Positions 6,936 to 59,909 of a stretch of DNA of 64,000 nt are shown piece after piece. The DNA is taken from the NCBI GenBank assembly GCA_965113315.1, contig OZ220363.1. One strand, given 5' to 3'. Below the pieces are notes generated by a model that was given only the letters and a program-made list of their open reading frames with translations, ran no database searches and had not been told where the DNA came from. Within the stretch, counting starts at the first letter, position 1. Each line of letters begins with the position of its first letter. This stretch comes from Podarcis vaucheri. Lineage: Eukaryota. The position numbers and the translations under genes are program-made.

Positions 6936-9900
6936 GTATGCCTTGCATTGTGAGCCTTCAGCTCAGCAGAACTGAGTTGATTCTTTGAGCGAGCTAAATA
7001 TGGGAGATAGTGTGCCAAGTTGCTAGGTATTTAAAATTTTCTGTTTATGTTGGGTGGTGGTGCACCAGAGAATGAAGAATGGAGTCAAATAGCAAGCAGA
7101 AGAATCACTTAATGCAGCTCTTGAGGGATTGTAGCTCTTCATTCTGAAAGTAGGGGACAACATATTTGATTGTGTGAAAAACAAAACATGGAAGCTATTG
7201 TGTCCAGGAGAAGGCTAACCTTGAACCTTTTTTCCTGACATGCTTGTTTTCTGTGTGCATGGGGGATTCCTCTTTGCCCCAGGTGGCAGCCCTGCACCTA
7301 TAATTGAAGTGGTGTCGTCCCTAAAAGTTGCACCACATGGTTCTGCTAATCACGTAAAGGCTCTGATCCCACTGCCTGACCTGAGAACAACGGGTGGTAT
7401 GCAACTAAGTTATATTCAGAGCAGAGCTATTGAAAGTAATAGAGCTAACTTAGTAATGCTATTACTTTCAGTGGGTCCACTCTGAATACTACCATTTGCA
7501 ATTTAAATGCATTCCAAAAACATTTTCATAGCTTCTGTTGGTAATCTTTATTACCACTATTTCTGGTTTAATGGACTAGAAGATCCTCTAGCCTGACCTG
7601 TGTCCAAAGCTGCATGCAGTTTTAGTGGCTTCTCGGTTTCCTGCAAAATAGTTTGGAAATTTAGCAAGGATTATTAGTAGAGCTCATTTTATTTTTATTT
7701 TTTGTGTACTTAGGCAATGGATTATTATTTTGATCCATATAATTTAGTTGCCCTGTGTTCTGGTTGAGCTCTGTATAAAATACATCTTTCCCCACATCCT
7801 TTTTTCCTCAGGGGATGCCCGTCCAAAGCCACCCGTGAAACCCAAGCCCTGTGTGTTGCCAAAGCCAGCCATGCCAGTGAAGCCTGTTCCTGGACAGCGT
7901 CAGGCTCTCTCTGAGGTGCCCTCTGCTGAAAAGATCAACTTGTTGGCTGGGCCCAAGCCATATAGTGGTGGGGCTGGCAATGCTGTTAAGCGTCTTTCTT
8001 TTGGTCTAAAGACCTCTCCAAGAGAAGCTACCAATGGAAAGGAGGTTTTGTATCCATTTTCCACCACAGCCAAACCAGCTGGAGATGGAGAAGGAACTGG
8101 GCCTGCAAATAAATCAAGTGTTGTGGAGGGAGCATCTGGAGAGGAGTGTGGAGAGTCCTCCAGTGTTCGCAAGGGTGCTGTTCCCTTCAAAGTAATACCG
8201 GTGCCAGTAGCAGCCAAACCAGAGCGTTTTCCTGGGACCACAGTGGAGGAGATTTTGGCCAAGATGGAGAAGCCCAACAAAGAAGGGGCAAGCAGCCCTG
8301 ACAGGCCTCGGCTGGTACGCTCCTTCTTCAGCCAGGATGGTAGCACAGCTGTCCACCTGGGGCCTAGGGGTTATGCTGCATTCCGGAGATGTTCCAGTGG
8401 AGAAGGGGGTGAAACAGAGTCGGAGGGTCCTGCTTGCAGAGCCTCTTGTGAAGTTGAGGACAGCATATTGTCAAGGAACAAGGAGGAAATCACAAGCTCA
8501 AATGGTCAGCATCTGCCTGAATCTGAGCTACCAGCAAGAGCAACGGAGAGAAACTTAGACTTACTCTCTAAGGACAGGTGAGGTTCAGATTCATTCCACA
8601 TAATCTTAGATGATCAGGTTTGCAATACATCACAGAGTGCCCTCTGTCAAGGACTGAGATGGGATGCAGGTCAGCAACTATAGAACAGTGCTAGGAAAAT
8701 GAAAGCAATACAGTAAATGTGTCTAGAAGGTGACCTGCTGGCAGTTCTTTCTTTATTCTTTCACATTTGGCTCTAGCAGAGGTAAATTATTCCTGTGATT
8801 TAAGAATGAAAACTGAGGGTTGGCACAACTGAAGGCTACATTCCTGGGCATTACATACATGGCAATAAATACCATTGAATTAATCACAACTTGAATTCAA
8901 TGGCTAGAATTGGGCATGCTTCTCCCAACTATAGTTTCTGTGAAATCTCAGTAATCTTAAATCCTACGATGATGTCATGAGTGGTAGCAACTCTTGGGAT
9001 TTATTTGTAGGTGAGCAGTTGATCAGGCACAGGTAACTGCTTTTAGAAGAACTCTGATGATGCTTGGAGCATTTCTACATTGTGGGGGTTGGATTAGATG
9101 ATAATTGGGGTTCCCCATCTCCTGTTCGTTATGTGATACCTAGTGTTAGGCAGAAAACCCTTTTGTGACAAAAGTAGCACACAATTCTGTTGAGCAGGCT
9201 TTGGGGAAACTGGATCTTCAGATGTTGTTGGACTTCTAGCTAGCTAACATGGCTAATGGTTGGATATTATAGGATTTGTAGTCCAGCAACATCTGGAGGG
9301 TCACAGGTTTTCCATCCCTGCCTTAGAAATACACTTTTTTCCATCAGTAATCAGGCTTGTTTCCTGATGGTGATGCAATCTTTCTCTCAGCAGCTCCAGT
9401 CAACCTAGCATGAGCTGTGATGGAGGCCAACCTGGATATAGCAGTCTACTGTCTCCTCCTGGCGTGAGTTATCTGCAGCACGGCAATTCCTCCGCTGGGC
9501 TCTCTCCTTCCTGGCTCTCCTCTGTCTCAGGGGTATCTGCCACCTCTCTCCTTCCGGGCTCCCTCTCTGTAGGGTGCGTGTCTCCTTTCTCTACTAATGC
9601 TTCTCTTCAAGAAGAGATTGGTAGCCCAAGCAAACAATGCACTATCTTGCACTGCTATGGGGTTTCCCAGGCCATATTTGTTGCTTTTCAGTAACTGGGT
9701 ATGTCCTTGTCAAAATCCCATGGGCTGGCTTACGTAGGTGCCTGCAGTTTGAAAGATTCAGTCCCTAACCTCATGTGCAAGACATGGTGACATCGACTCT
9801 GAGGAAGTCTTCATTTTTCTACCTTGCATGGTACAGTTTTGAAAAATCCAGAGCATAATCTTGGCATTTGGTATAGCACATAGTGCTCCCACTAACAGTC

Positions 9901-12900
9901 CCAATACTGCCTTATGCTTTTGGAAGAGTTAGAAAATAAATGAGAAAAATGGATCTGTGACCCTTCAGCTCTTTAGAGAGCAAACTCTGGCCTAGGCTAG
10001 CTAGCTAGCCTGAGCCTAGCCCAGGCAAAGTGTGGAAACCTAATGCAGAATACCAGGCCCTTAGCTAGAGGGAAGGGAGCAGCTGTGACTCAGTGAATAC
10101 AATTTGGTGACCTACAAGGTATGTATGAAGCAGATCCCAGCAGCTGGGCCTGTGGCCAAATAATCTAGCAGTGAAAGCACTTATAACCTCTTGCTGCTTG
10201 TTCAGGGATGGGTGATGGTAATGATTAACTCCTTTTGCCTCTCCCAGAGGAGGAGGAGGAGGAGGAGGAGGAGGGAAGGAAGGTCATCAGCCTATTGTGT
10301 GATCTACTTAGCTTAGTTCTTCACTTTTCTGAAGGCCTAGTTGGAGAGGAGGCAAGGTCCTGGGGTGGGGCATACAGCCTTGTTACTGCAACACTTTGAA
10401 CAATTTCTTCAGCCTCTCTTTTCCCCTTCCTCCATTCTTTGAATTTCCTTTCCTTCTGGCTTCCTTCGGGCAGAAATATTGTTGGGGAGGGTCTCGTGGG
10501 GTCTTGTAGTGAAACCAGAACTTCCAAGACATGAAGGACAATCTCTAAGGTCTAGAAAAAGAGGGAAGAGGTTAGGATTGGAGGAGACATCCTGTATTCT
10601 TTGGGGCTGGAGGGGGACAGATTAGGATGCTCGGGAAGGTTCCAGGGAGGGAGGAATCATATTTTTAAAACCCATTCTTCCCTTGTTTCTCTCCAGGTCT
10701 CTCTCCCCAAGACCTATCAACTTCTCACGAAGCTTTCTTCTCGAGTCACTCCTGGGTCCCCTGATGCCCCTGCTGAATCAGCCCAGTCCCCAGAGAGCCC
10801 ACATTTTCCAGCAGATGTCCCAAGTGCTAAAGCTCAGCTTCCCCCAGGCTCCCCTGATGCACCTACTGAACCCCTCAGATCTCCTGTTAAGGTCTCCCTT
10901 GGTCATGCCCAGGCTCCAGGTTCCCCTCTTGCCCTATCTGATCCCTGCCCCCCAGGATCCCCCAGTGGTTTCCTAGGACACTCCTTGTCTTCAGGTCTTG
11001 GGGACCTTTCTGCAAGATGTGCTGGGCCATCTGCCAGTTTGACTCATCCTGCTGCTGAGCACAGCCTGGCACCCCCCTGTGGTCTCCGAGGAGTGTCGGA
11101 GTCCCCTGGCTCCCCCAGCACTCCTTCTGAGTACCTTGCTAGTTCTGATAAGCCTCCTGGCTCTCCCTCTCATGCGCAAGCCTCCCCCTTACTCTCCAGG
11201 GCTAAGGATTCCCTCGACAATCAAGCACCAACATTAACATTTGAGGGTAAAGACCCCCAGTTATCTCAACTGGTTCTACGGCGTGCCTCAGAAGGGGTGC
11301 TGCAACCACGGGGTAAAAAAATGGACAAGGAGGAGCTGGGAGGGTCTTTGGCTGTCTTGCCAAGAGGAGGGGACCCAGCTTTAGAGCAGGCTGCAGGGGG
11401 AGAGTCCAACTGGAGCTTGTCACAGTCCTTTGAATGGTCGTTCCCTAACCGGGCTCTTGAGTTTGGTGGAAGGAGACTAGGGTCTCCTCCAAGGTCTCCC
11501 ATTGCGGAGGCTGATGATACTGGTCTCTTGGAGGCAGAATTGGATAGAGAGAGCCTCAGCCCCAAAGGGTCTTATAAGGAAAGAGGTTCAGAGGGCCAGA
11601 GAGGAGAGGAGACTGAGGCTTATGGGAGCTTGTTCTGCCACAGCAATTCCAGGAGTTCCCCAGGGATCAGGAGAAAGGCTGAGGACCAGCTGGAGTCCCC
11701 TTCAGCCCTTGAGATATCAGCGCCTGGAGGTCCCTCAACTCTGAGGGAGCCTATTAGCCCCAAGCTCAAGGGCCCTATAGCAGCAGCAGAGGTTGGTTGT
11801 CAAGAGGAGCATGATGGTTTATTACCCTTTGTCCCAACCCCTGAGGAAGGGGCTTTAAGGGCAATGGAGCCGTTGCCAAGTGTAGAGCAGGCTGCCCCTC
11901 CTGCAGAGCCTTGCATCTTATTCTCTGAAGATGTCCAGGTGGGGACAGCTGCTTCCTGCCAAGAAGATGATGGTGCTGTAGGTCTGGCACGTGAAGGCAA
12001 GTTGGGGGTTGCTGACCCCGAAAGGAGGGCTGACCCTGATCCAGGCTCACACTGGCTTGATGAACTGCTGGCATCTCCTCCGCCTAGTGCTGATGACATA
12101 AAGAAGAGAAGTACGCCCAAGTCAGAAGACCCTACAGGACCGGAGGTAAAGGAACTGTATTTAGTGTGGGGATGGGTGGTTGGCTGAAGACCACAAAACG
12201 GGTTGCAAGGAGACAGTTCTACTGGCTTCCTATTTCTAGTGCTTTTAGAACCTGGTAAGAAGGCATTAAATGGGCACAAGCATGGCTAGGTGAATGTGCA
12301 TTCCTGCCCAGTTAAATAACAGAGACTGAACTTGTCTTTGGGAAGGGCGGGTCTTGGTTTTTAAGTAAGCCGCAAAAGTGGCTGAACAGGTTAGATGGCT
12401 GCAGAGTGTGCAAAAGAGGAGGCTGAGCCAAAAGGTGCTGCTGCGTGGGTAATCCTCCAGTCATCCTGGGTGGAGCAGCTTCCCTCACCTCCCTGAATCC
12501 AGCCTGCCCGTACACATCAAAGTTACTTTTGTCTGTTTGGTTGGCCCTCTTTGCCACCAAGAAATTGTGCCTTGAGCTCCAGCAGACTCAGCCTAAGAAT
12601 GAATTGGTGCTTCTTAGTTTGGTAGGGCTCCATAGCTATGTAGCTACAAGGCACATCACTTAATGTACTGGGTTGTATACCAAAACTAATGTGCATACCT
12701 TGGTAGGCTCACGTGCTCTAGCGAACAAGAATTAACTGTTCATTAGGTGGTTATAATAGGGGGTGCTTCTGAAAGCCCAAAAGTCTCACAGTCTGATCAG
12801 GCTTGCAAGGGGGTTCTTTGCCAGTGAACAATTCAGTACAGTGGTGCCTCGCAAGACGAAAAGAATCCGTTCTGTGATTCTCTTCGTCTAGCGGTTTTTT

Positions 12901-15900
12901 CATCTTGTGAAGCAAGCCCATTGACGGATTAGCGCTATTAGTGGCTATTAGCGGCTTATCTGCTGATCGGATCAGCTGATAAGCGGCTTAGCGGCTTAGA
13001 AAAAGGGGGGGGAGGAAAAAAAACCAGCAGGAACTCGCAAGGCATTGTCGTCTTGCGAAGCAAGCCCATAGGAAATTTGTTTTGCGAAGCACCTCCAAAA
13101 CGGAAAACCCTTTCGTCTAGCGGGTTTTCCGTCTTGCGAGGCATTCGTCTTGCGGGGCACCACTGTACCAGTGGCTACTAGTTTATTTTCCTGGCCATAT
13201 AAGTACCTCTTTAATCTTCCTTGCATTTTACCAATATGGAGCTTGCCAAAATTCCAAATTATTTTTGAAAACTAATTTTTAACAGGCACGTTTCAAGCTA
13301 TAATTTCCTTACATAGAAAACACTTCTATGTAGGAAACTGAGCAAGCATGAAAGACCAAAGAAAGAATTGCCACCAGGTCCCCCCCCCCCTACACATTTA
13401 CGTAAATAATTGTTTCTATACTAAATGCATGAAACTTCCTTCATCTACACATGAGTGGATGATTACCAAGTGCAGGCTTATCACTCTATGTATGGTCAAT
13501 TTTTTTAAAATTGTATATAGCCAAAGGCCTTTACAATGGATGACAGAGAATAAAAGGAAAACTTTCCTCTAAAATCATACATGTGGGTTTGATATATGTT
13601 TCCATTTGGAGGAACTTTCTAAATGGAAGATTGTAGTGTTAGGAACATAGGAATCTGCCTTAGACTGAACCAAGACCATTGATCCCTCTAGTTCATGTCT
13701 AGTTTAGACCTGGGGCCCATTTTTAGTTCAAACATGCTTTTGGGCATAAGCATCTTAATTTTTTACTACATATTTATAAGGTTGTGATGTAGTTGTTGTG
13801 CCCACCTTAAGTCATGTTGATCTGGTAGTAGATCTGGCACATTTTTGAAGATATAATGGTCTACACTGACCAGCTGCTCTCCAAGGTTTTGGACAGGGAT
13901 CTTTACCAGCCCAGTCTGTGGATGGCAGGGATTGAACCTGGCACTTTTACATGCAAAACGTGCTGCTACCCAGTAATGGCTTAAATGTAATGGTTAAAAA
14001 ATAATAATACAGGAAGGGCTTAGTTAATTTACATTTTCAGTTTCTGTCTCTTTAATGTATTTCTCATATTGGACTGTTGGGAGAAGGGACATCTTTACTA
14101 GATCAGATCCCCACTAAATTTGGCTCACTGTCCCATGCCTTTCTAATGTTGCTTTATTTTCCTCGCCTTTCTTTATTAGGATCTTCTGGGATGGTCAAGG
14201 AAGGATCTTCACAGCGAGTTTGGCTTTGTAGAAGTTGATCGGTCTGCTACCTTTGGCATGGGTTGGGCTGCTGGTGTTGGCAAGGTAGTTTGGCCTGGTG
14301 AGACAGAGCAGGATCGAGAATTTGGCACTGGCCCACAGGAGTGGCTGAGCTCATACAGTGATGCCAAAAGGCAGGATATGGAATTTGGTTCCAGCCAGAA
14401 AGTCTGGACCAGAGGAACACCATTGCAGGACAGTTCTAATCCAGGGCAAGAAGATTGGATCACTGCCTATGGCAGCAGTTGTGGTGACCAGAAGATTGAG
14501 GAGCCAGATTGGAGCAGCACATATAGCATCAGCACTGCTGAGTGTCAGGACCGAGAGCCATACGTGAGAAAACCAGGCTGGCCCAGACTCTGCAGTAATG
14601 AAGATGATCAGGAGAGCAGCAGGTCTGCTGCTGAGAAAATGGGTTGGAGCAGCCCCTATCACGGTGCTACTGAAAGAACTGACTGGCCCAATAAATACAG
14701 TGAAGAAAAGGATAGCTGTCCAGAATTGGAGGTCAACACAAAATCATCAGATGCATTTAGCAAATACGGTACTCACAGCCACCAGGATGCAGAGCTCAGT
14801 GCCAGGCATTTAGAGGGGCCCAGTGATCACAGTGCTGTCAATGTTGGCTCTCAGGATGCCACGTCCAGTGCCAGCCAGTCAGGCTGGCCTAGTGATTCCA
14901 ATGTTGACAGCAGGGCTAGCCCAGTGCGGTCAGAGTCCCATGCCAACCAGGTGGAGCAACCTAGTGAATATAGTGCCAATCATCCAGAATCCCAGGTTAG
15001 CATCCAACAGCGACTACGACCCAATACATATGGCTTTGATGATGGCAGCTGTCAGGAGTCTGAACTGAGTGTCAAACAGTCTGATTGGCCCAGCAGATAT
15101 GTCATGGGTATTCCCCAAAGCCATGATGGTGTGTTCAGTGCTGAAAAACCAGATGGAGCCAGTGAATATGATGATAATCAAACACGCTGGGAAAGAGAAC
15201 TCAGTATTGCAAGCAGAAGCAGCACCACTGAATTTGAGGCTGGTAATCTGGAGTACTGTGCCCGGAAGCCAGTCTGGGCTGATGATTACAACCTTAGGGA
15301 ATCTGATCTACAAGATAGTGATTTCCCCATTGCCACAACAGAATGGGTCAGAGACACTGATGTCTCGGCAACTAAACAAAATAACCAGTTAGGTGCTATA
15401 GGGAAGGACCGAGCTGGTAGTTTTGGTCCAATAGAGTTACCAAGTCTAAGTGTGACCGTGGATTTGGAGGAGACAGCTGGCAGCCTGGTAGGTCAGTCTA
15501 GAGACTTAATAGCAGTTGCTATGGATGAGCCTAGAGGAGTTGGAGAGGGGCAGCCTGAGTGGACTCAAGATCTTGGCCTCAGAGGCATGGATCTCTCAAA
15601 AGACTTGAAAGTTGGGAGCCCAGATGCATCTGAAAAACCTACAGAGAAGCAGCTTCATTGGTTTCCTTCCTTGGGTCTGGAAACCGTGTCTGCTTCATCA
15701 GATGTAAGGACTGTGAATCCAGAGGAGACCAGAGAACCTGGTGTGGGACAAGCAGATTTGGCCTACAGATCTGGCACTGAAAGCATGGAAGTGTCTGATT
15801 TGAGGCCCAAGGCTTTGGATGGGGCTGAGGAAGTAGATCTAATACAGATGGACTGGACTGGCGCAACTGGGATAAAGCATAAGGACAGCAGCTATCAGTT

Positions 15901-18900
15901 TGGAGCAATACCTTTGGATGGTGATGAGATGGAGCATCCAAGAGCAGCTGGAGTCTCTGGAGAAAGGTAAAGGCTGTATCCTAATGTATTATAAAAAGGT
16001 TCAGATGTTTTCATGCTTTAGTTCACTTGGTCTCCAACAGGTGCACTTCAGTGTGACAAGAGACCTATGAGAGCTTTCACAGTGGTATTAGAGGAGGATG
16101 AGAAGATGAAGGCAGGTGGGTAGGTTGCCCAGGCGATCTGCAGAGGAATTGCCAGGACATTTTCTGAGCAGCTGTGCTGCTGCTTCCGCCATATCCATTG
16201 CTATTCACCTCACACCAGTGATGCCATTTCAGCCTCAGCAGTGTCAGACAACAAGGGAAGTGAAGCAGGTGACCTGCCCAAGTGAGTCATAGAGGAACAG
16301 TTGGGACCCCTTGAGCAGCTTAATGTGGGTCAGACGGGTGTGTGTGTGTGTGTGTGTGTGTTGGTGAGTGAAGCAAGTGATGGCACAGCCCCATGTCTCT
16401 TAAGAAAGTTAGAATGGAAGTGGAAGGCTAAATGAATACAAGTGGACAATGGAATTGAAGTACTGATTTTGTTTTTGCATTGATTTCCTTTTGTAAATTC
16501 CTTTTGTAAAGTCAAAAGCACAGTTGCACACTTTTAATCGGTTTGCAACCATTCCCTTTCATCCCTCCATGTTACCCATTGTTAGTACAGCCAGTACCAC
16601 ATATTACTTTGTGTCTATGGTGCACAGCTGCTGAGGTAGGCCGTACAGCTACCTCTTGAAGCCAGAAATCTTTGTGGGAACCAGGAGAGGCAACTTCTAC
16701 GGCGCTGCAGTGTAGAAACACTGCCCAGGCAATGGAACTTCTTTCCCTCACTCCGTGTGTGGCCCCTAAATCTACTATGAGTTTCCCCCCAGTTCTCCAT
16801 AGCAGATTTGGGGATGGCATGGGTCACATTTGGTGGTGTGGGAGAGGGAAGAAGAGAGGGAGAAGGTTCCATCCAACAAATAAAATTCTTGTGGTGATGG
16901 AACTTTAGCTCAACATATTAGTTGAATATGGCCCTGAGGTTTAGAAGCAACAATCATAGTGTGTAACTCTTGTTTCTTTTGTGAGAAAATCCAGTGATGC
17001 TCCACTGCTACCCTCCATCTGGTCATGACAGCAACTGCACACCCAGTAGCCATGATGTGCACTGTTTTGTTTTTCTAACTGTGGAAACACAGTAGAGTAC
17101 TGTGGCTGTTGTAGAATGAAATCAGGCAGGCGGGGGGGGGGGGGGGGGCTGCAGCAGGTTACCTGGAGGTATATTTTTACTCTCCTTAGCTGACCAGACA
17201 AATGCCTAATGATACAGCTGCTGTTCTGCAAGAGCTGTCACCTTTGCTGTCGTATGATCAGTTCCACTGTCTTGTCTTGGGTTGGTGCCATGTTCAGCAG
17301 GAATGAGAAGAGGACTGATTCTTTTATGAATTGCTTCTAGTGTTTGGCTTTCAATTAGCTGTCTTGCTTCAGCAACATCCTGTACCAGCAGGTCCCATGT
17401 CTTATGCACATAATTAGCACTCTCATTCAGTATGCTCTGAAGTCACAACCTCTTTGTTATGGGTGAAAATGAGTGACAGTATCTATAATTCTCTTTCCTA
17501 TATTGTATTCTGTAAACATCTCTCTTCGTCATCACTTGTTTCTCTTCAGCCTTGGATTTGCTGACTAGTATTTTTAAAAAAATGATTCACTTCCCTCTGT
17601 GCCCCCCATGCCTCTTGCTGTGGTCCCTCATTTACGCAATTTTCTCCTGTGGCCCCCTTGGAATATCCTGGGCCCCAGCATATGGCCCCTGGTTGTGAAA
17701 CACTGCTCTAGATTGGAGTAGGAGTGCTTTGTCAGGATGTGAGGTGGCATTGCTCCCTCCTTTGAACATGTGCTTTTGAGCACCTCTTTTTTGGCAATAC
17801 ATTCTCCACAACTAGGTACTTGAGAGACCAGCAGCAAGTATGGCTTAAGGATTGTGCTGATGTGGAAGTGGCACACTATTTCAGAGGTAGGAACAGGTTC
17901 CATAACAGAAGTAGGTCAGAAGGGGTTGGACCAGGCCCTTGTGGTCTCTTCCTGGAATGAAGTGGTAGCTAATTCCCCCCCCCCCCGCACTCAAATCTGG
18001 ATCCATACCTGTATTGCTTTCACTAGGGAAATAACAATTTTGATGACTGTCCAGCTTCTTTGAAATGCAAAACAGAGTAGGAGTAGCAGACTGCACAAAC
18101 CCCTGTCGCCTTTCTCCCACTTTCCTAAACTTGAAACAATTTTCTTTTTATACAGCTAATGCTGTTGCCATCTTTCTATCACTTTCTGTGGGTTATAACC
18201 AGCATCTTTCTGTTCTAGCATTTGAGGAACTCATGTCACTGCTTGGAATAAGACTTCCAGATTGTGAGCTCTTTTAAATGCGAAGTCATCAAATTGGATT
18301 GTGATTATGGAAAGCAAAAGGGACAAGAAAGATAGTTTGCAGTGCTGCACTTTTTAAGCTAACCATGAAACAGGGGCAAGCTATTATTTATTAGTCACCA
18401 TTATGCTGGAGCCCCAAGTGGCCAACAGTGAAAATTAAATATATTAAATTTAATCAAGTACAGCAGCAAAAATGAACCATAGCAAACAAACAGACTAAAT
18501 ACTAAACTCCTCTTGAGCATAAGCCTCATTGTCATCAAGTTTATCAAATAATGTTAAAAGCACTGATTCGTAACATGTTGAAAATGTTGAAAGGCCTGGG
18601 GAAAGAACTGAAGTCTTCTCATCGTGCCCTCCATATATGTGTAGAAATTAGGAAGAATTGGGTCAGTTTCAATCTCAAATAACTGATTGCCATCATCTCG
18701 TCCTTGTAACCTAATGAAAATGGATAGTTATAGAGATGGCCTTGGCAACTGTAGAGAGAATTCAAGGAGAACAACAAGGTGTGACTTTCAATGCCATGCA
18801 CACAGCCATTTTAAAAGGTGCAGGTTTCACTCAAGGACTCTTCTTAGCTAAAAGATGTGCCTTCTGATTTGGCTAAAATGGGGGATGGAGAGAATTGAGG

Positions 18901-39424: not shown

Positions 39425-39860
39425 CTCTGGAGAGTTTAGGATGAGAGGATGTGTATGGTTTGTTTGCAAGTGGGTGGATACAAATGACAGATGGAGCTGC
39501 CCAGCACTGCAGGGGGTCAAGTCGTCCAATTCACATAAGGATGTTGAGTGAAAGCAAAGGGAGGGGTGGGAAAGGGGGCTGGGTCGCCTGGATTTTAAGA
39601 CAAATCCCAAGGAAGGAACTGCAGCCTCCTGAGTGTGTGTGAGAGAGTGAGGAGGAGATGACACACAGGCTGAGCAAGCCCCTGGCCAGATCTGCCTAAA
39701 GCTGTGATAAGGAGGCGCAGGAGAGGCAAATGAGCTGAGACCCTGGGACTTTTTCCTCCTTGCAACAAGGAAGGAACTTGTACGGAGTGGATCCAGATTG
39801 GTGAAGGATTCTACAAGATTGGAAGAGAGGCCTCTTCCACATTCTCCTTCTTGAGCAGGC

Positions 39861-40979
39861 ATGGAGTCCAGCAACGACACTGACAGCTACCCAGGCATTC
39901 TGGAGTGTGACTACGAGGACTGGAGTTCATCCAGGATCCTGATTCCCTCCATCTACTTGCTGGTTTTCTTCCTAGGCACCACTGGCAACGGCCTGGTACT
40001 ATGGACCATTTTCTGTGGAGGCCAGGAGAAACGGCGGTCTGCAGACACGTTCATTGCCAACCTGGCAGTGGCAGACCTCACCTTTGTGGTCACCTTGCCA
40101 CTTTGGGCTACCTACGTCATCCTGGACTACGACTGGCCCTTTGGCTCTTTTGCCTGCAAGCTCAGCAGCTACCTGGTCTTTGTCAACATGTACGCCAGTG
40201 TCTTCTGCCTCACAGGCCTCAGCTTTGACCGCTACCTGGCCATCGTCCGCCCCATCGCAAATGCCAAGCTGAGGTCCAAGGTTAGTGGGCTTTTGGTGAC
40301 CCTAACCCTCTGGGCCATGGCAGTCCTCCTAGCCTTGCCAGCCATGATCTTCCGGAGCACAACCGTCTTCACCGGGACAGACAAAGTGACGTGCTACATG
40401 AATTTCTCCAGTGTGGCCACCGATGAGACCGAGCAGATCTGGGAAGCAGGGCTGGGCTTGTCTTCCACCCTCCTGGGCTTTGTGCTTCCCTTTGCCATCA
40501 TGCTGACCTGCTACTTCTTCATTGCCCGCACCATTGCCGGCCACTTCCGAAAGGAGCGCACTGAAGCGCTGAGGAAGCGGAAGCGCCTGCTGACCATCAT
40601 CATCGTCCTGGTGGCCACCTTCGCCGTCTGCTGGCTGCCCTTCCACTTTGTGAAGACCATCTACATGCTGATGGACTGGGGGGTGATGCCCTTGTCTTGC
40701 GGCTTCCACGCCTTCCTCAGCAACCTCCACCCGTACAGCAGCTGCTTGGCCTACATCAACAGCTGCCTCAACCCTTTCCTCTATGCCTTCTTTGACCCCC
40801 GCTTCCGACAGGCCTGCGCTGCCGTCCTCTGCTGCAGCCCAGGGCATTTGGCAGGATCTGGTGGGGACAAGTCTGCCAGCTACTCCTCCGGCCACAGCCA
40901 GAACCACCTGGGGAAAGGAGCAGATGCACAGCGGGAGAAGCAGTGCCCCGACAGCCAGGAGACTCTGCTCCGGGGATAA
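39861..40979 (+). CDS. APLNR: Apelin receptor (class A GPCR), 372 aa, intronless CDS
   Basis: Seven hydrophobic segments. ECDYEDW N-terminus, GNGLV, KRRSAD, LAVAD, CKLSSY, FDRY, CWLPFH, NPFLY, Ser-rich tail [16 protein letters not shown]. Strong Kozak gcaggcATGG with an in-frame upstream stop at 39852. Synteny with TNKS1BP1 indicates the ortholog of human APLNR. Confidence 0.96.
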
Positions 40980-48980: not shown

Positions 48981-51922
48981 GGCGCCTCATATTTTCCATT
49001 GGTTTTAATCTGGGCTCACTCCCCGTGTCTTTGACTTACTTTGTGGTTCAGTGCCTATCATACTCTCCCCCCACCCCAATTTGGCAAATAGTCAGCTGCC
49101 TTCACTCTGTTTCCCATTTTAGAGTGGGAGTAGTTGAGGGACAGAGACTGGATAAGCCATTATCAATAAAACTCCTTCATAGGAACATGAGAAGCCCCCT
49201 CTACATTATCAGACCAAAAACCTACCTAGCCAATATTGTGTTTCCCAAAGTGGTCTTTGACCACATGTCTGTGAGAAGCCCACAGCCAAAACATGAGGGC
49301 AATAACCCTCTCCTGCTGCTCTGACTGGTAACCCAGGGCACACTGCTTTTGATTCTGAAGGTAGCAGATAGTTATCCTGTCCAATGCCCATTGATAACCT
49401 TATCCTCCATGAGTCTGTCCGATCCTCTTTGAAAGCTGTCTAACATGGTGGCATCATCACATCTTGCGGTACCAAATTCCTGCTCTGTGTGATAAATCCC
49501 TTTGACTGAATGGTCGGCCACAGAAGACTAGCTCCATACCCCATGTGAAAAGTGTAGAGCAAGCGGTCACCAACCTTATTAGGCCTGTGGTCAGATTTGC
49601 AAACATGAGAAACTTTTGTGGGCACCCCCCACCGCAGCACAACAGCCTCTTCTATGGGTTACCACAGAATGATTCTTCCAAATTTCTAATTTCAGTGAGG
49701 GGAGGGGTGTACCTTGGGGACAGCAAAGATGGCCTCTGTGAGCACATGGACACCACATTGACAACCCCTTAGAATTGCCCCATCCTCACTTTGCCCCCTT
49801 GTTGTGTGGAGTAGGAATGTGGGGCAAAAAGAATGACTGCTAAGGAACAAGAATAGATGCCAGTTCACCTGATTCTGCTCGCAAATATATGTTTAGATGA
49901 AACCTCAACATGCCCCCATGAGGCTAGTCAGGCAATTACTGCCCACACATATAAAAGCTGGGCTTGTGGGAGTGTTTGTTTGCTGTTTGCATCTTATCTG
50001 AAGAAAAGTTTGAAGGCTACAGCTGGGTTAATTGAGGCGCTGCTTTTTTCCCCTCACACAAGCAAAACAGCAAACACTTGACAGTTGCTTATGGGAATCA
50101 TACTAAAGATAGCATTTGGCAAAAGGAAAAAACACATCCTACTGACACCTAATAAGGCAATTAAGAAGACCTCAGAAGTACCTCAGGCCAGGCTAATTGA
50201 TCTAAGCAGGCCAACAGCACCGGGGGTGGGGGGTGGAAATAAAGACTGTTTTGAAGTCTATTTAGGCGTTGATGGACAATGCCCCGGGTCTAAGGTCTTC
50301 CGCTTACCAGCAGGGCAGCAGTCCACAGCAAAGAACCATTTTCTTCAGTCACCCCTCTCACGGCCATTGCTGACAGAAAAGAATAAGCTGACACTGTGAG
50401 GGAGTTGCATGCTCAAACAGCCGCCCACTTCGCCCTCCCTATGTTCCTGTGTGAGGCAGCCCTCGTGGGAGGGATAGTGTTGTTTCAGAGTGCAGCAGCT
50501 GTAAGTGCACTTGTCTCTGAGGGAAATGTCTCCTTCCCTCCCCCAAATTAAGCTAAAGAAACTTCGGCAGACTTCTTTTGACTCCTACATGGAGCTGCTT
50601 CCGAGGCTGGGTGTCTATTCCCAGCCTCTATGGTACTGATGGCAAGGAGAATCCTTCACCTAGCAGCCACCTAGCAGCTGAGGAGGACAGCAGCTGGGCC
50701 AAAGAAGCCTACTTACTAGTTCAATCTAAAACTGCTGACAACCACCCACATGGGCCACCCAGAGGCCCGATTGGCATCTCAGTCTGTGTCTCTTATGAAC
50801 TCAGTCCTATTGCGCATTGTTTACTTGGGAGTAAGCCCCACTGAATTCAATGGGACTTTCCCCCAAGTAATACAGCTGAGATCCTATGACCAAAAAAGCC
50901 ACTCAACTCAGTCACTGTGGTACACAGCCTCCACCACCCACCACCATTGTACCAGGTGGAACAGGCCAGAGAAGTGGTGATTTGAGGGAGAAGGTACAAG
51001 GGCAGCCTGCTTTGACCAAGTCATGGGAGCTATGATGGGCAAATACCAGAGTTCATTTGGGGGTCTCTGAGGCTTGCTGAGTTTTACATTGGCCTCTACA
51101 GAGCTGAGCAATCACAATTTCCTGGGTGTTTTCAGAATAGATACTGCATGGCTCAACCAACCTAAATTCAGTGCTGGCTAACATAGGCTTAAAGTAAGCT
51201 AGAGTAGACCAGGCTGCTTGCTGAGATAGATAGAAAAGCTTGGAAGTCAAGATTGTGTAGAAATTCAGCCTGAGGCAAGTCCTAGTCCCTCCAGCTCTTT
51301 CAACTTCTCCATGCATGGACTTGGAAAATGCCTGGAGTCTAGACCATTCCTTTGTTTGGAAATGAGACTTCCTTGCTACATTGGATGCCTTTTTAATTTT
51401 TGTCTCTTATGAGCAGGGTTAAAAGTGTCAGGCAATGGAGAAATGCTGGACTTGGTCATAGCTGTGGTTTGGCAGCAGCGCATCATCCTGTGCTTCCACA
51501 GGAAACAAATGTCAAGGCAGGGACTGCATGCTTTTTCACACGCAGGTCTTATTGTGCAGGGAAAAAGGTTATTATATTATTAAACACAGTAATCCAGTCC
51601 ATATTTGTGGTGATTAGTGGTGGCTACCCAAGAGTAGCTTATTTTTAATTTTCATTTATTATTCCAATTACAGTATATTCTACCTCATCCCCGCAACAAC
51701 CCTGTGTGGTAGGTTAGGTTAAGAGATTTGTGATTGGCTCATATGCATGCAGTGAGCTTCATGGCCCAGTGATGAAATGAATCCTGGTCTCCCAGGTCCT
51801 AGTCCAACACTCACCACTACACCACACTGCCCCTTGTAACACAGTCTAGTATTATTATCCTCTCATTATACAGGGGGCTGAACTCTAAGCCTGCAGCTTG
51901 GTGGTATCTACTTAGGGTCATC

Positions 51923-52357
51923 CAGTGCTTCTTTTTCTGGGGAGACGCAGGAGTACACATACCCCTAAACCAGGGGTCAGCAAACTTTTTTAGCAGGGGG
52001 CCGGTCCACTGCCCCTCAGAACTTGTGGGGGGCCAGACTATATTTTCAAAAAAATAATGAATGAACCCCACAAATAACCCAGAGATGCATTTTAAATAAA
52101 AGGACACATTCTACTCATGTAAAAACACACTGATTCCCAGACCGTCCATGGGCCGGATTGAGAAGGCAATTGGGCCGGATCTGACCCCTGGGCCTTAGTT
52201 TGCCTTCCTATGCCCTAAACATTTTGTGAATCTTTGTACTTTTGTCCATTTACTGTATTTATTTTTCCCCAATTTGAACTATAAAATGGTGATTTTCTTG
52301 AGTCAAAATGAGAGTACCTCTTAAACATATATATTTTTTTATAGAAAAAAAGCACTG
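51923..52357. mobile_element. hAT-type MITE (outer element of a nest)
   Basis: TIRs CAGTGCTTCTTTTTCT / AGAAAAAAAGCACTG; 8-bp TSD GGGTCATC at 51915-51922 and 52358-52365. Confidence 0.8.
51971..52212. mobile_element. hAT (Charlie-like) MITE nested in the previous element
   Basis: Ends CAGGGGTCAGCAAACT / AGTTTGCCTTCCTATG, internal GGGCCGG motifs, 8-bp TSD CCCTAAAC at 51963-51970 and 52213-52220. Confidence 0.85.
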
Positions 52358-53730
52358 GGGTCATCTAATTTATCCTCGCTGCTCTTACTGCAATCTAGGT
52401 TCTTGAACAGCCCTCAGAAGCACTGTAGTGGAAGCTCTTAACACCTGCAATGTACAGCTAGGGGCTATGTAGTTGTTGTTTTGGCTTTCCAAAACAATCG
52501 GACACCACAACGATCGGACACCAACAAATTCTTCAGATTGTAGCCTCAAACTCAAAGCTGAACACTGACATAATTGCACCCCATTCACTTTCATGCAGAC
52601 GCACTGCGCATTCACCCCTCCTAACGCTGCAAAATGAGGGTCCCACTTCCAACCAGAAGCCAAGGACTCTTTCTGTCTCTATCCTTTCTGTCTCTATGCA
52701 TATTTTCTAATTATGTTTCTTGACTCTTGGCTCAGATCTGGGAAGGATGCAGGGCTGATACTGCTGGCAAGATTTCTTTTGTTCAGTCTTGTTTGTGTGA
52801 CTTTTCTTATCACGGTGATCTCATAATTTTGCACCTTGTGCCAAATTCATAACTCTAGTGGGATTAATTTGTCTCATGATCTAACAAGTATTAAAATAAA
52901 AACAAAGCTAAAGGAAGGGTGCAGTAGATTGCTTTGTTTTTAACTTTCTGAACTTGGATACAAGAGGCGACCTGAGGACTAATTCCATACCAGGGGTGAT
53001 TAATGCCCAGTTTTGGGGCTTGAACTCCACCCAATAAGCCATTTTTTCTGCTCACCATGACCCCACTACTTTTGGCAGCAATGGCAAAAATAAAATATGA
53101 ATTAAACTGGATAGAACCCTGAGGTGGGTGGAGTCCTGTGCCCTAATGCTGATGCAAATAGTCTCTTCCCTGGTTATCAGATCTATCATTAGATGAGGAG
53201 GAAAAGTGTGATAGCAAGCAATCAGCTGAAAATGAGCTTTGGTATTCCAGGGACTGTTGTCACCACCAGATCCCCATCCCTACTGTGCTCTGCAGGATAC
53301 TATCTAAAGATATTATCTCATCAGGAATTCCTTTCTACACAGTCAGGCCTTTAGGGTGGTGGCATCTAACTTGGGGAACTCCCCCTCTTCACATGTCAGA
53401 CATCTCTACTGTCTTTTCAGCATCTGTCCAAGTCTTTCCTCTGTCAACAAGTGTACCTCAGTCAGTATCTGTTTTGAATTTTGAGTGTGTTTGTATGTGT
53501 GTGTGTGTGTGTGTGTGTATTAGTTTTAACTATTTTAATGTGTGCAATGATTTTGTATATGGTTTTATTGTATGGTGAAATTGCTTCAAGATGCTTCATA
53601 GGAAGCATGAAGATCATCATCATCAGGTATTGTAATCATACTGTATGAAAAACTGTGGGGCTGTAATAAAGACTCAGGTGTGTTTTCTGGCTTCCACTAA
53701 GAACACAGCTTCGTAAATTAACTTACAGTA

Positions 53731-53980
53731 CAGTCGTACCTTGGTTGTTGAATGCCTTGGTACTCGTATGTTTCGGCTCCCAAATGATCGAAACCAGGAA
53801 GTGAGGGTTCCGGTTTTCAAACTTTTTTGGGGAAGCTGGACATCCGATGTGGCTTCTGCTATTGTTTCTGGCACGCCTGTGCAATCAGAAGCCAATCAGA
53901 AGCTGTGCCTTGGTTTCTGAATGTTTTGGAAGTCGGATGGACTTCCGGAACGCATTCTGTTCGAAAATCAAGGTACAATT
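53731..53980. mobile_element. Tigger-like MITE, right TIR degenerate
   Basis: TA-CAGTCGTACCTTGGTTGTTGAA left end; TTCGAAAATCAAGGTACAATT right end. Confidence 0.65.
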
Positions 53981-54271
53981 CCTATGGCAGATGGTTGCCG
54001 TATTTCAAAAAGTGAAAATCTGGACACAAAAGTTATTGAGCCTTTTTTTTGGAAAAATCTAAAAAAGAAAAGAAAAGAGTTTTTGAGCTTTCTTTAAAAA
54101 TAAAATTTAAAAATTGCCAGAATAAAGCCTACACTTCCGACATGGGCTTTTCCTGGACATTTTAGCGATTTCTGCTCAGACGCTGTTTACGAGAGCCAAA
54201 TACTGGCTATGTCCGGGAAATTCCAGACGTATGGTGGAATTAGATGTAGATGTCTCACTCTCCAGAGAATG

Positions 54272-54501
54272 TTACAGATAGGTAGCCGTGTTGGTCTGCC
54301 ATAGTCAAAATAAAAAAATTCCTTCCAGTAGCACCTTAAAGACCAACTAAGTGAGTTCTTGGTATGAGCTTTCGTGTGCATGCACACTTCAGTGTATCTT
54401 CAGTGTATCTGAAGAAGTGTGCATGCACACGAAAGCTCATACCAAGAACTAACTTAGTTGGTCTTTAAGGTGCTACTGGAAGGAATTTTTTTATTTTGAC
54501 T
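54272..54501. mobile_element. Penelope-like element remnant forming a long inverted repeat
   Basis: 88-bp arms 54303-54390 and 54414-54501 (1 mismatch); flanking direct repeat CTCCAGAGAATG at 54260-54271 and 54500-54511. Confidence 0.75.
54405..54442 (+). ncRNA. Minimal type I hammerhead ribozyme motif
   Basis: GTAT-CTGAAGA-a-GTGTGC/AT/GCACAC-GAAA-GCTC-ATAC: both catalytic core boxes, stem II, 4-bp stem I and a palindromic minimal stem III. Confidence 0.65.
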
Positions 54502-56104
54502 CCAGAGAATGAAATTTGTATATGCAGCCTGCAATACTTTTTGTACGCATGTTGCTATAAGAGGAAGCAGTGGTGGTGGAAGTGACTTTCCCCACTCATT
54601 TTCTCCACTACCGCTCAATATTGAATGACATAGTGTCAAAGAAATGAACCTCTTTTCACCTGACATCTTCTGGAAGACACGAAACTGTTGACCATGAACA
54701 AAGTGTCTCACTGAAGAATGAAAGCAAAAAAGGGGGAGAAAGAAGTTTGTTGGCTATTTCCTTTCAGGAGTGGGGACAAGGGATGTGGGCTGCTGTTGTT
54801 TTCAGTCCAGAGTGCCATCTATTAGATTTGTCATGCAGCCTCTTCATTTTCCATTTCCTCTCAAGGAGGGAAATGGCCTGAATGGAGTCACCAGAAGAGA
54901 GAATTTAAGCAACATGACAGGAAGCAGAGACTTTAAACCTGCACATTGCCTCAAGAAGAGGAGTTGGGAAAAGGGGGGAGGAAGCAGCAACATTTAGCAA
55001 AATGTCTGAAGGCGATAAGAAAGGTGACAACATCCTGAGGCATGGCAAGGGGACAGAGAGTAGAAAATCCCTGGGAGAGGTACAGGTATTCATTTGTGTA
55101 GAAAAAATAGATTGAACCCATATTAAGTAACTCACTTTAGACCCATTGAGATCAATAGGACTTACTTTTGTCATGACTAATTTATTCCATTGATCTGAAT
55201 GAGCATAACTGTATTGTGGGAGGGATTCAAGCACGTATATACAGTTTTAGGTTTGCGCAGTTAAGGTGGATTAAAGTGCTCTCTTGCCCTAGCATGTTAC
55301 AAATCCACCTTAAAAAACGGACAGTTTGCAGTTTGGAAAATGATGGTGAAATGCTTCTTAGAGCCTACACACAACAGAACCTTGAATACTTGCTTAATTA
55401 AGAACATTTGTTTAATATGGGGTGATATGGAAGTGGGGTTTTGTACAGTAGCACTGGTTATATCTTAAACTTATTCTTATTTTATTTTTCATAGCCCGCA
55501 GAAATGGGCTGTTCATTGCTGGAACCACAGTAGACAGAAACTGAAATTAACTAGAAAGAAAAGTATAAGAGAGGACTCTTGCTCCAGCTCCAAATAATAT
55601 GGGGTTTTAATTTATCCCAAGAATGATCAGATTACCACGAATTATTTAACAACACCCACCTTAGCCATTTCTCCTCTCCAAATCACATTGTCACAAAATG
55701 GTTGTTCCTGGAATAAAAAGGCTGTTGCAGTTTGGATAGTGACCTTTGTGTATAATGAATAGTTATTAGGTTCTGGCTTTCGCTAATGAATACAGCACTA
55801 CCAAACACTGAAAGGCTGTAGAAAGTAAGACTTGCCCATTTTTGCTGAATTGAGCTTTGAGAGGCATCCTGATGGATCTTTGCTGAAAGAGAGTTCCACA
55901 GCTGTGTTGCCACCACTAAAAAGGCCTTGCCTTCATGCTCAATAATGCTGAATGCCTTGTGATGGTATCCTTGGATAACATGCTTAGGCAAGGAAAAGGA
56001 ATGAAAGGAACCTCACAAATGTACAGATTGTATTAGCAAAAACATTGCAGCGGCACACACACAGTCACAGAGAGACATTGCCCTACTGGCTCCTGGTTGT
56101 GTAA

Positions 56105-56213
56105 ACACCATACATTTAAAGCACGTCTAAAGCAGCCCCCTGCAAGAATGTAGGGAACTGTAGTCTGCACAGTGCTACAATTCCCAGACCTTTAGCAAAC
56201 TACAGTTCCCAGG

Positions 56214-56255
<42 letters not shown>

Positions 56256-56269
56256 TAAATGTATGGTGT
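56105..56269. mobile_element. Palindromic MITE with an internal (TG)n tract
   Basis: Ends ACACCATACATTTAAAG / CTTTAAATGTATGGTGT; related copy at ~33100-33226. Confidence 0.6.
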
Positions 56270-56693
56270 GTATGTAAAACCTGAAGCTGCTCACCCAAGC
56301 TATCAAAACTGTAATGACTGGGATATTTCAAGTAACACTCATCAGGCGCCATTCCTCCTTGCCCACCCAAAACTGAGTCCGGAAAGAGCTCACACCTCCC
56401 CTAGCAACCATTTATGCCTTTGCAAGTTGACTCCCATTTTCACACATATGCTGAAAGCTGGCGGAAACAAAGAATGTAGATGTACATGGTGATAATTAGC
56501 TCTTGACACAGACTTCAATACAGGAGGGCCAAGTAGCTTTTTAAAAGTGTTGCTGTGCTTGAGCATGACCCAAAAATAGGAGGAGGGAAGTGCTGCAGTT
56601 GCTCTGTATTTAACAAATGAACAACAGCAACAAAATCCCAGTAAAAGGTTCATTGCAAGAAATGTTTCAAGCGTTCAAATGAAGCTTTCAAAT

Positions 56694-56903
56694 GGAGAGC
56701 GGGTGCAGTGTAATAGTTAGAGGGTCAGATGAGGATACCAAGGTTCAAAACTCCACTTGGCCATGAAACTCACTGGATGTGACCTTGGGGGCCAGTCACT
56801 GCTTCTCAGCCCTAACCCACCTCAAAGGGTTGTTGTGGGGATTAAATGAGGAGGGGGAGAAGCATGTATGCTGGCTTGAGCTCCTTGGAGGAAAAGGTGG
56901 GGT
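56694..56903 (+). mobile_element. Squam3/MIR-like SINE
   Basis: Same head/core/tail layout as 59910-60139; further copies at ~37045-37225 (+), 46320-46490 (-), 51680-51831 (-) and 63185-63320 (-). Confidence 0.7.
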
Positions 56904-57479
56904 AGAAGTTTGCTAGATGACTACATGACCCTTGGGTTCTTTCCCAACTCTACAGTTCTGTGATTCGAAGCGCAAAAAATAAAAATCACACAAGATTCCA
57001 TTAGAAGTATTCAAAATTGCATTAGGTCAAAAGGAACCAGTTCTTGCATGCTTAGCTTGGTCACCTATAGATGCTGGGCCTGAGAATTTCAAAAAGGCTG
57101 CCAGGGTAAAAACTGTGGGTGCTTCAGAGAAAGAGACTGAGGCTGAAATTTGTTCAGCATGAAAGCACAACAGGCAATCCAACTATAAGTGAATCATCCG
57201 CTTGCACAGGTATAGAGAAGCTGTGGTCCTGCAAGTGTCACTCCAGCTCCCATCAGCCTCACCCATCATGGCCAATGACCAGAATACAATGGGAAATGTG
57301 GCCCAGCAATATCTGGAGGGCCACAGTTCCCCCACCCCTGCTCTAAGGCTCTCTTTGCGTTTGGCAAAAGCATGGCAAAACAGAGAGGCTGGGAGGCAAA
57401 TTGTAGCCAGAGAGGAATTTTCAAATAGGCTTGGCAACAGGCTTGCAATAAGGAAATTTGCCCAAATCTACACTCAACA

Positions 57480-57583
57480 TGGGTTGTCATACGTCCGGAT
57501 TTTGCCGGACATTTAAGCGATTCCCACCCGGACACTGTTTCTAGCAGCCGAATCCCGGAATTTCCGGGTATATGGCAGCCCTA
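57480..57583. mobile_element. MITE with GGGTTGCCATA / TATGGCAGCCCTA ends
   Basis: Inverted ends and internal CCGGAC repeats; related pieces at ~53990-54238, 60550-60660 and 62020-62080. Confidence 0.6.
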
Positions 57584-58408
57584 CTTGGCAGTCAGTTTGG
57601 TCTCCATTTAGCCAATTATATGTGCTAATATAGGAAAGTGTGTTACTAGATGAAGTTTGCACTCTGCAGGCCTAGATACTGGTTGCTGGCCACTACCAGA
57701 GATCTCCTTTCCTCCCTCCTGATTCAAGCATGTGACTAAAGAGGCAGTCCAGCTGTCACAACCCAATTCTGTGCTATGTTTGGCTTGGGGAAGGCTAACC
57801 TCTATCTACCCCATATGGTCTCTCAGCTGTGTGTGTGGGAAAAAGAATATCAGCAGGTGCAACTTGGCATTTTTAAGCCTGTGGAAGTAAAGTTCACAAG
57901 TAGGGTGTTATGCTCACAGCCACCTTCTGAAGTTTGCCTCTGGGTACCTGTCAATCTTTGATCACCTGCCTCTCCCTGCATAGGTTCCATTCTTCACAGA
58001 TACAAGAAGTTGCATATAGAACTCTATATGCATAAATTTGTCTAAAAATCCTTTTCCAACTAAAGTTCCAAAATAAGTCTCTTCTGAATGATGAGAACAG
58101 GGGGAGAAGAAAACAGAGATGGCATCATCATAGCACAAAGCTACTGCAGAATCAAGTATGAAGAACAAGGAAGGACAGACACATGCTAGACAGAGCAATC
58201 TATTGACTGAATTTAAAGCATTTCTAAATCACTTGATATTTAAGCATTTCCGAGAGGTATGCTAAAGTGCCACTTAAAAGCAGATGAAGCAGGCATTGAG
58301 TAACAGCAGGGCTCAGGGAAAAGCTGGGCAAGAAGATATGTGTTCACTCGAGATGTCTGAAGCAGCTGATGGGTGATGCTTCATGTGTGGCAGAGGGAGG
58401 GTCATTGC

Positions 58409-58409
58409 A

Positions 58410-58441
<32 letters not shown>
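58409..58441. repeat. (AATC)n microsatellite
   Basis: Direct reading. Confidence 0.9.
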
Positions 58442-58443
<2 letters not shown>

Positions 58444-59909
58444 AGGGGCAATGGCAAAAGATGCTCATTTTTGGGTCACAGCCATGTGATATTCTGTAAG
58501 GTACAGTGCCATGAGTATAATTTCCCCAGATGATCCAAGTAATTTACAGGTCTATACAGGGGTAGGTGGTCATTCAGGTAACCTGGTCTTGAATTGTTCA
58601 GGGAACCTAACTAAAGGGTGTGTGACCAGGGATATATGAAGTCAACACATTTTGATTTGTGGCTGTGGGTTTGGGGATTCTTCTCATGGACCCATGTGGC
58701 TTCCTTCACTTTTTAAAGGATGATTTAATAATATACTCTGTGAAATTGCAATAACTGGTTGGTTGAGTGAAGGTGTGACATTTGGGGAGTAAGAGATGAC
58801 CCTCAAAATAAGGGCCAGTTGGCAAGGCAACTCTGGGTTTGGTGATGCCCTGAAACAACCACATCTGAATTTGACATAGACCTTTGGGTTGCCTCTCTAA
58901 TCTTGCAAGCAAGGTGCCACTGAGATGAACTCAACATGTGTCCTGAGGACTTCTCTGCCAGCAAAGTGAAATCCAGCCTGTTTTGTTTTCCCTTCCTTCT
59001 GGGAGACAAGGTGAGGAATTTCAAACCCTCAGATCAAAGGGCTCCATGGTACCTTGTGTTTGGTAGATCTGGCCCCAGCTGTTAAGGATCAGGCTTCCCC
59101 TGTGGGAAACAAAAGGAGCAAACTGGAACCGTAAACCAGGAAAGAAGGCTCAAGAAAATTAGCTTCCAGGCCTCTTGCTTCCAGCAAACAGGAAAGATAA
59201 ATACTGCTGGGCAGGACAAATAAAATGCAGATGACAGTAAGAGACATTCTAAGCTTTGCTACTCAATGAGGATGTTAACAACTGGGAGAGGGTGATAAAT
59301 TCTGTTGCTCAGGATGACAGTGTACAACTGAGGAGACAGAAGTAGGTGACAGGGTCTTCCATAAAGAAATGACATAACCTACTCTCATTTCTAGGAGAAG
59401 TAGGTTTGAGACTTGGACCTAGATGTCTTCCGCTGAGCTACCGTCTTTCCCTTTCTTTATCTCCCAAATTGCTGATGTGGCATCTGCCTGCAATGGCCTA
59501 GGTCAGGAGACAATGCTGATTCCCCCTTAGGAACAAACAGGAGTACTGTGGCTGATAACTCTTTGGCACTCTTGCAGCAGGAATTTTCTGCCATGTGTCT
59601 TTGGGTTGTTGATGGCTCCCTGGAGAGAAGACCAGTCTCTGTCTTCTTTAGCATCTGTGAGCCAGGGCTACATGGCCTTGAGATAGCAGCATTAAATCAG
59701 TCACAAACCCGTGACATGGACAAACAGGAAGAATAAATATCTCTGGGGCTGTGAGCAGGATAAGGTGACAGTCAAAAGGATGCAAATGTTATTCTGAAGT
59801 TCCTCTTTGAGTTATTGAGGCACGGCCCAGTGTCCTGTGTGTGAGATCCAAGTCGAAAATGGGAAGAACAAAAAGGGCTTTGTGTGGGGTGAAATGCAAC
59901 CCCTCAAAT

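Follow-up and report, generated by a model that had tools for sequence, protein, structure and literature searches.

A recent fold-back insertion of a Penelope-like element end repeat carrying a minimal hammerhead motif in Podarcis vaucheri, and its likely origin from priming on uncleaved RNA

In the present study, the hairpin surrounding a candidate hammerhead ribozyme in a 64,000-nucleotide stretch of Podarcis vaucheri DNA (contig OZ220363.1 of assembly GCA_965113315.1; hereafter, the window) is ascribed, with a probability of about 0.8, to the recent insertion of 228 bp from the end repeat (pLTR) of a Penelope-like element (PLE), the fold-back likely having formed when two uncleaved leader RNAs were primed, one on each cut strand, and their copies were joined head to head. 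The insertion with its 12-bp duplication has been traced to a parent element and to a large family whose copies have fixed outer ends and copy-specific junctions. The element occupies positions 54272-54499 and consists of a one-sided tail, a minus-strand tail-bearing arm, a junction and an inverted arm. With pLTR position +1 set at window position 54403, the parts are as follows.

54260..54271, no strand: target-site duplication, left copy, 12 bp; its last base is also the last base of the tail
54271..54302, minus strand: one-sided 32-bp PLE tail, pLTR about +100 to +131
54303..54390, minus strand: tail-bearing pLTR arm, 5'-truncated at +12, without the 5' strand of stem I and most of CUGANGA
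54388..54409, plus strand: copy-specific inversion junction, in which an 11-nt piece holding TCAGT occurs twice (54388-54398 and 54399-54409)
54403..54499, plus strand: inverted pLTR arm, +1 to +97, untruncated as far as the predicted start of transcription
54405..54442, plus strand: minimal type I hammerhead motif, cleavage being predicted just past C54438 (+36/+37)
54500..54511, no strand: target-site duplication, right copy, 12 bp, a repeat of 54260-54271

The inverted repeat (54303-54390 and 54414-54501) has 88-nt arms that are 99% complementary, and the stability of the resulting hairpin (z = -17.7) was equalled in 0 of 200 shuffles. The empty site was observed in three of three DNA runs (X15, X17 and X19, which represent three organism codes and three studies) as a contig in which 54259 is joined directly to 54500, 240 letters being left out and 12 letters fitting on either side; such contigs show presence only and are silent on the filled allele. 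The window copy has no open reading frame and lacks the TATA box of the parent. The minus-strand "broken core" is not a mutated ribozyme, as comparison with the parent shows: the arm merely stops at pLTR +12, where it is joined to the other arm through the 11-nt repeated start.

The plus-strand motif at 54405-54442 agrees with what the first-pass annotation had spelled out, comprising stem I GUAU/AUAC, the core CUGAAGA at 54409-54415, a bulged A, stem II, GAAA, the palindromic AGCU and C17 at 54438; the CUGANGA and GAAA core, the NUH site, stems I and II and the palindrome replacing stem III of a minimal hammerhead are all present. The 6-bp stem II with a 2-nt loop drawn in that annotation is impossible; folding gives 5 bp and a CAUG loop, and all 14 nt of the stem II region form a palindrome. 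As an isolated 38-mer, the motif is no more stable than its shuffles (z = -0.44), and the Rfam hammerhead search, suggested earlier as a check, gave zero matches at E<=10 over 50000-59000. A 12-nt piece of the core matched exactly only in the two arms across the window, and at two mismatches the 7 window matches were equal to chance. The motif is beyond chance because its 34-nt core recurs in 9,164 exact copies against 0 for the reversed control, which substantiates the claimed dispersal, here in thousands of copies, and because it is placed in the pLTR of an element encoding reverse transcriptase (RT) and GIY-YIG domains, which bears out the earlier assignment to the minimal type I hammerheads of PLEs. 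Two microRNA precursors, MIR1222 (49.7 of 90 bits) and mir-466 (37 of 85 bits), were rejected as under the Rfam gathering scores; their sub-threshold matches on both strands are due to the perfect hairpin alone.

When the element served as the query of a sequence search, 1,086 candidates were obtained; the best 40 of them, the window's own copy aside, were all fold-backs of similar length with 92-98% identity, and a 20-nt piece of the tail has 7,807 exact copies and 0 control matches. Copies with longer 5' parts continue into a coding tail, and a search with the protein of this tail led to the parent (locus L121), in which a truncated unit is followed by a pLTR at 4283, an open frame of 921 aa and another pLTR at 7302 (3,019 bp on). 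The frame holds RVT_1 at 449-597 (E 3.4e-12) and, C-terminally, GIY-YIG at 819-866 (E 3.3e-05); this single open reading frame with RT and C-terminal GIY-YIG is that of an endonuclease-positive (EN+) PLE, and the parent has the partial tandem arrangement with direct pLTRs. The tail region corresponds to the first codons after the in-frame ATG, and the parental pLTR is 95% identical to the family copy L046. On sequence grounds, the insertion is the end repeat of a young, putatively Neptune-type PLE, the clade name being our assumption from the linker. The parental protein carries the cysteine-rich linker CNKPRCQLC upstream of GIY-YIG, which fits CX2-5CxxC, and in passages of PMC8557442 a CX2-5CxxC linker between RT and endonuclease marks Neptune and is shared with Nematis. 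A TATA motif starting 30 bases before +1 and an initiator-like TCAGT with its A at 0 suggest the promoter and transcription start of the parental pLTR. A search of PDB sequences with the parental protein gave 0 matches, and core pairs 2.4-3 kb apart on contig C1, fetched as candidate full elements, had no long PLE frame. The unit at L121:4283-7400 (G000:C25:3432282-3435399) is apparently complete; position 17 of its hammerhead is U, which was also observed there in 15 of 146 sampled arms. Another locus, L125, holds an inverted pair of long PLE copies amid long hexamer-type simple repeats with dipeptide-repeat frames, possibly telomere-like.

Evidence on how the fold-back formed comes from a survey of the sequence surrounding the first 100 of the listed tail matches (within 0-8.6 Mb of contig C1), which gave 99 distinct tail-bearing copies; these were picked by a tail 20-mer, and the sampled 8.6 Mb of one contig has denser copies than average. 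An inverted arm was present in 63 of these 99 tail-selected copies, short fold-backs accounted for 41, and a duplication of at least 7 bp, most commonly 12 bp, was observed in 73. The 3' end of the tail lay at +126 to +131 in all 99 copies (at +131 in 66), and the outer end of the inverted arm at +89 to +102 in 54 of 63. Among 162 arms, the 5' ends fell upstream of -6 in 50, at -6 to +6 in 66, at +7 to +31 in 30, at +32 to +42 in 1, at +43 to +100 in 14 and beyond in 1 (66 ends in 13 nt vs 1 in 11 nt, p 1e-16), and none of the 162 was at +37, the predicted ribozyme cut. This accumulation of inner ends at the predicted start resembles what RT would leave on reaching the end of an uncleaved RNA. 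When the two arms of the 63 inverted copies were compared, the inverted arm was the longer at its 5' end, by more than 5 nt, in 36, the reverse was observed in 10, and the arms were equal in 17; the extra sequence of these 36 inverted arms, sometimes hundreds of bases, is absent from the tail arm. Junction letters vary from copy to copy in both L001-L030 and the tail-selected sample, and microhomology of 0-7 nt between duplication and arm end was observed in most copies in a tally without a control. An intact core was found in both arms of 14 inverted copies, in the inverted arm only of 24, in the tail arm only of 17 and in neither arm of 8, the window copy belonging to the commonest class. 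Among informative copies, the two arms carry the same subfamily letter in 5 of 6 at position +36 and in 6 of 7 at position +75, as expected from one RNA source; the sharing is weaker at +44 (2 of 3), +48 (2 of 4) and +63 (2 of 5), and private differences between arms number 88 against 25 shared.

Because arm ends lie at the predicted start and none at the cut, and because the inverted arm is often the longer, we infer twin priming on uncleaved RNA; the fixed ends, the 36 longer inverted arms and the shared letters together favour twin priming on RNA of one source, followed by end joining. The transcription start used here is deduced from motif spacing together with the pile of arm ends. Cleaved templates would give starts at +37, although insertion may be less frequent for products that are very short or unstable, and later gene conversion between arms could explain the shared subfamily letters. 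At L059:1495-1590 and at L209, the tail arm is preceded by the pLTR start (+1 to about +48) in the form of short direct repeats, which suggests that RT repeatedly jumped between templates at the 5' end of the RNA.

Herein, we propose that the promoter of the parental pLTR (TATA at -30, initiator-like TCAGT) would start an RNA at about +1 and that the RT/GIY-YIG protein would cut both target strands, with about 12 bp between the cuts. From one of the resulting 3' ends cDNA would be primed at +131, and from the other at about +96; the two cDNAs would run toward the RNA 5' end, and their ends would be joined by repair, in the course of which trimming and small repeats would arise. The hammerhead is likely to be active, if at all, in tandem transcripts of the parent, as a dimer or aided by protein, and in the window stub it would be a passenger. 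A stricter form of this scheme, to which we give an even chance, makes twin priming obligate: an enzyme dimer would prime the 12-bp staggered cut at +131 and about +96 on uncleaved RNA of one source, and the transcription start, not the hammerhead, would stop the cDNAs. If this form is true, thousands of hairpins would represent a genome-wide record of strong-stop products, and hammerhead cleavage would play no part in making the insertion template.

With the same element and the same passenger ribozyme, the inversion might also have arisen when one cDNA, or an antisense template, snapped back and primed its own extension, with subsequent trimming; such self-priming is proposed for inverted PLE junctions in passages of PMC3846280. 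Subfamily letters common to both arms, junctions with short repeats and microhomologies and a tail arm that is equal or longer in 27 of 63 copies would agree with this; however, the sequence that 36 of 63 inverted arms hold and the tail arm lacks makes a simple snap-back of the first cDNA insufficient without trimming, and the clustering of inverted-arm outer ends at +89 to +102 resembles a second priming site, so that we consider self-priming unlikely. That the whole hairpin is a non-autonomous element copied as a unit from a SINE- or MITE-like master is scarcely credible: the likeness of the best 40 of the 1,086 candidates and the 41 short fold-backs among the 99 copies agree with it, but junction letters and short-arm ends differ among 30 copies where shared junctions would be expected, and lengths are continuous from 40-bp stubs to multi-kilobase inverted copies.

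Returning to the twin priming of uncleaved RNA, the fold-back would likely be a by-product of element insertion and not an on/off switch of the ribozyme. The first-pass annotation had proposed a dispersed ribozyme/antisense system, in which the antisense arm silences the ribozyme in read-through RNA, and transcripts initiated in the loop or paired with another copy self-cleave; as a selected system, this is very improbable. The motif of the window is intact, an initiator-like TCAGT is present in the loop, all 4 RNA runs from a related organism contained family RNA of both strands, and, as had been claimed, the read-through transcript hides the core within the full hairpin in the folding model (P(unpaired) <= 0.02). 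The release of the ribozyme is disfavoured by the same model: if the RNA starts at 54391, CUGAAG is sequestered within a small hairpin at the junction, and two 38-mers prefer a 14-bp stem II duplex (-30.6 kcal/mol) to the active dimer (-11.1; monomer -6.8), in calculations that omit tertiary contacts and protein. Dispersal of the motif holds, whereas an evolved system is not supported, as the arrangement varies and the core has no detectable excess conservation; the conserved arrangement and core selection in dispersed copies that would mark a regulated switch are not apparent in the sampled copies. In addition, the junctions and the arm that keeps the core are freely variable, the window copy is without a TATA box, the empty allele of the site occurs in 3 DNA runs, and read starts or ends do not pile at the cut site in the 4 RNA runs, a weak test of cleavage as fragmented libraries barely show such ends.

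The conservation of the core was considered in young and old copies. In young arms, ten non-CpG core sites had 6 changes in 1,255 letters (0.48%) vs 55 in about 6,000 (0.92%) at forty flank sites, a favourable but non-significant trend (p = 0.17) from a test of low power in which flank depth was rounded to 150 and four subfamily sites were left out; with G12 included, the core rate is 1.2% (p = 0.29 vs the flanks). A core more conserved than its flanks among young copies has thus not emerged, and the outcome named beforehand as refuting the ribozyme, i.e. no cleavage as monomer or dimer together with no excess conservation of the core, is half supplied by this null result. G12, the general base according to passages of PMC6155905, is part of a CpG and is replaced by A in 11 of the 141 young arms. 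An older related family was found by a degenerate search, and 30 copies were taken by DNA likeness; its majority sequence matches the young motif at 10 of 11 core sites vs 42 of 62 other positions, the 11th core site being the CpG-decayed G12, which is A in 15 of the 30 copies and, like its change in young arms, counts against a selected switch. The older family also differs at N7 and H17, and compensatory changes between the families are observed in stems I and II. Conservation of the core across families gives p = 0.16 as counted and 0.03 if G12 is taken as ancestral, and in the covariation analysis two pairs were changed on both sides, with a score matched in 41 of 500 shuffles (9 rows, 7 from the core pattern). 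With weak statistics, this pattern fits a core that is kept in the active lineage and then decays after insertion. The older hammerhead family (L221-L250, e.g. L134:1376-1461, minus strand) has a stem II of 6 bp closed by a 4-nt loop and numbers about 1,039 candidates, and an opposite-strand partner match was observed in 14 of 30 loci.

The transcriptional data consisted of four raw RNA runs, 6-12% of each, from organism A, a related organism that is perhaps another species. The RNA covers +1 to +131 on both strands, 83-90% of the reads continue into unlike sequence, and the depth over the ORF start is 0-9 reads, which fits passive transcription of dispersed copies. RNA on the unique flanks of the window locus was absent from about 12% of one run, an absence that is uninformative on the window allele because the DNA run of this organism shows the empty site. 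A-to-G differences in the RNA reads were indistinguishable from differences between copies.

Several features of the neighbourhood were also observed. Multicopy repeats at 53729-53973 and 53993-54232, just left of the insertion, have very deep contig and RNA coverage. A single-exon rhodopsin-family GPCR (7tm_1, E 5.7e-71), which we take to be apelin-receptor-like, is encoded at 39855-40979 on the plus strand, and the insertion lies about 13 kb downstream of it. Three long open frames of 277-596 aa are present at 7748-15970 on the plus strand; Pfam gave no match for the two of them that were searched, and the frames presumably resemble large exons of TNKS1BP1.

Dimer cleavage of PLE hammerheads is reportedly the subject of one study. 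Compared with the minimal hammerheads of metazoan PLEs in passages of PMC4209133 and PMC6765202, the window motif is alike in its core, in having a short stem I, an additional nucleotide ahead of stem II, a G10.1-C11.1 pair and palindromic 15.2/16.2 and in lacking stem III, but its stem II is fully palindromic with 5 bp and a loop, whereas that of Schistosoma has 7-8 bp. Passages of PMC4209133 also describe similar minimal motifs in turtle and snakes, dual motifs on opposite strands 100-700 bp apart and minimal hammerheads in pLTRs with low activity as dimers, and the window motif may already stand in the supplements of that paper. A non-LTR retrozyme, with hammerhead units head to tail, was rejected for the window copy, which is head to head with one intact core. 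Elsewhere, at L066:3441-3904 on the minus strand (G000:C1:5631940-5632403), five head-to-tail units of the same pLTR, about 101-104 bp long and extending from the predicted start to about +98, each contain an exact core; the arrangement resembles a retrozyme array in the making, and its adjacent hammerheads could pair in cis.

The inverted pLTR, the one-sided 32-bp tail, the duplication and the minimal hammerhead are all already published features, and an inverted pLTR with tail and duplication is described in passages of PMC8557442 and PMC3846280. Counts of where the two arms end are absent from the passages of PMC8557442, PMC3846280 and PMC2377424. Among the openly accessible papers covered, no report joining "twin priming" with "hammerhead" or containing "twin priming" and more than one mention of Penelope was found, nor was a paper on this reptile-type family. 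The value of the present results as a record of mechanism is modest; the formation of inverted PLE ends and the role of the hammerhead are left open in passages of PMC8557442 and PMC11167929, and exact predictions for in vitro work are offered by this family, which is young, includes an open-frame parent, has sharply defined ends and counts about 7,800 exact copies of the tail.

As an insertion, the window copy resembles those of EN+ PLEs (PMC8557442; Pen2a_Av of Adineta, PMC3846280; Penelope of D. virilis, PMC2377424; passages of each) in its head-to-head inverted, 5'-truncated pLTR, and the window family is also alike in the one-sided 32-bp tail overlapping the ORF start, the short duplication and the TATA and initiator-like motifs of the pLTR. 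The inverted 5'-truncated copy, one-sided tail of 30-40 bp and target-site duplication that distinguish EN+ PLE insertions are all found in the window, whose copy is the shortest form of such an insertion, with no coding sequence beyond the tail. In the twin priming of L1, two cDNAs copy separate parts of one RNA. L1 twin priming and the window have in common an inverted 5' part, a retained duplication and a messy internal junction; unlike in L1, the window arms overlap by about 85 nt, with a fixed second start. A further comparison is provided by passages of PMC11167929 on Poseidon PAc of the green anole, in which, in vitro, the PLE protein cuts and extends both strands, RT starts at two sites bounding the tail with uncleaved RNA preferred, and the hammerhead cuts only with protein. 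The fixed outer ends of the present family at +131 and about +96 agree with two such priming sites. Poseidon PAc and the present family both have a pLTR hammerhead, fixed ends bounding the tail and signs of an uncleaved template, but the parent of the window family has CxxxxCxxC before GIY-YIG, a Neptune-like linker unlike that of Poseidon PAc, and its tail is at the ORF start, whereas the tail of Poseidon PAc lies 111-118 bp inside the ORF.
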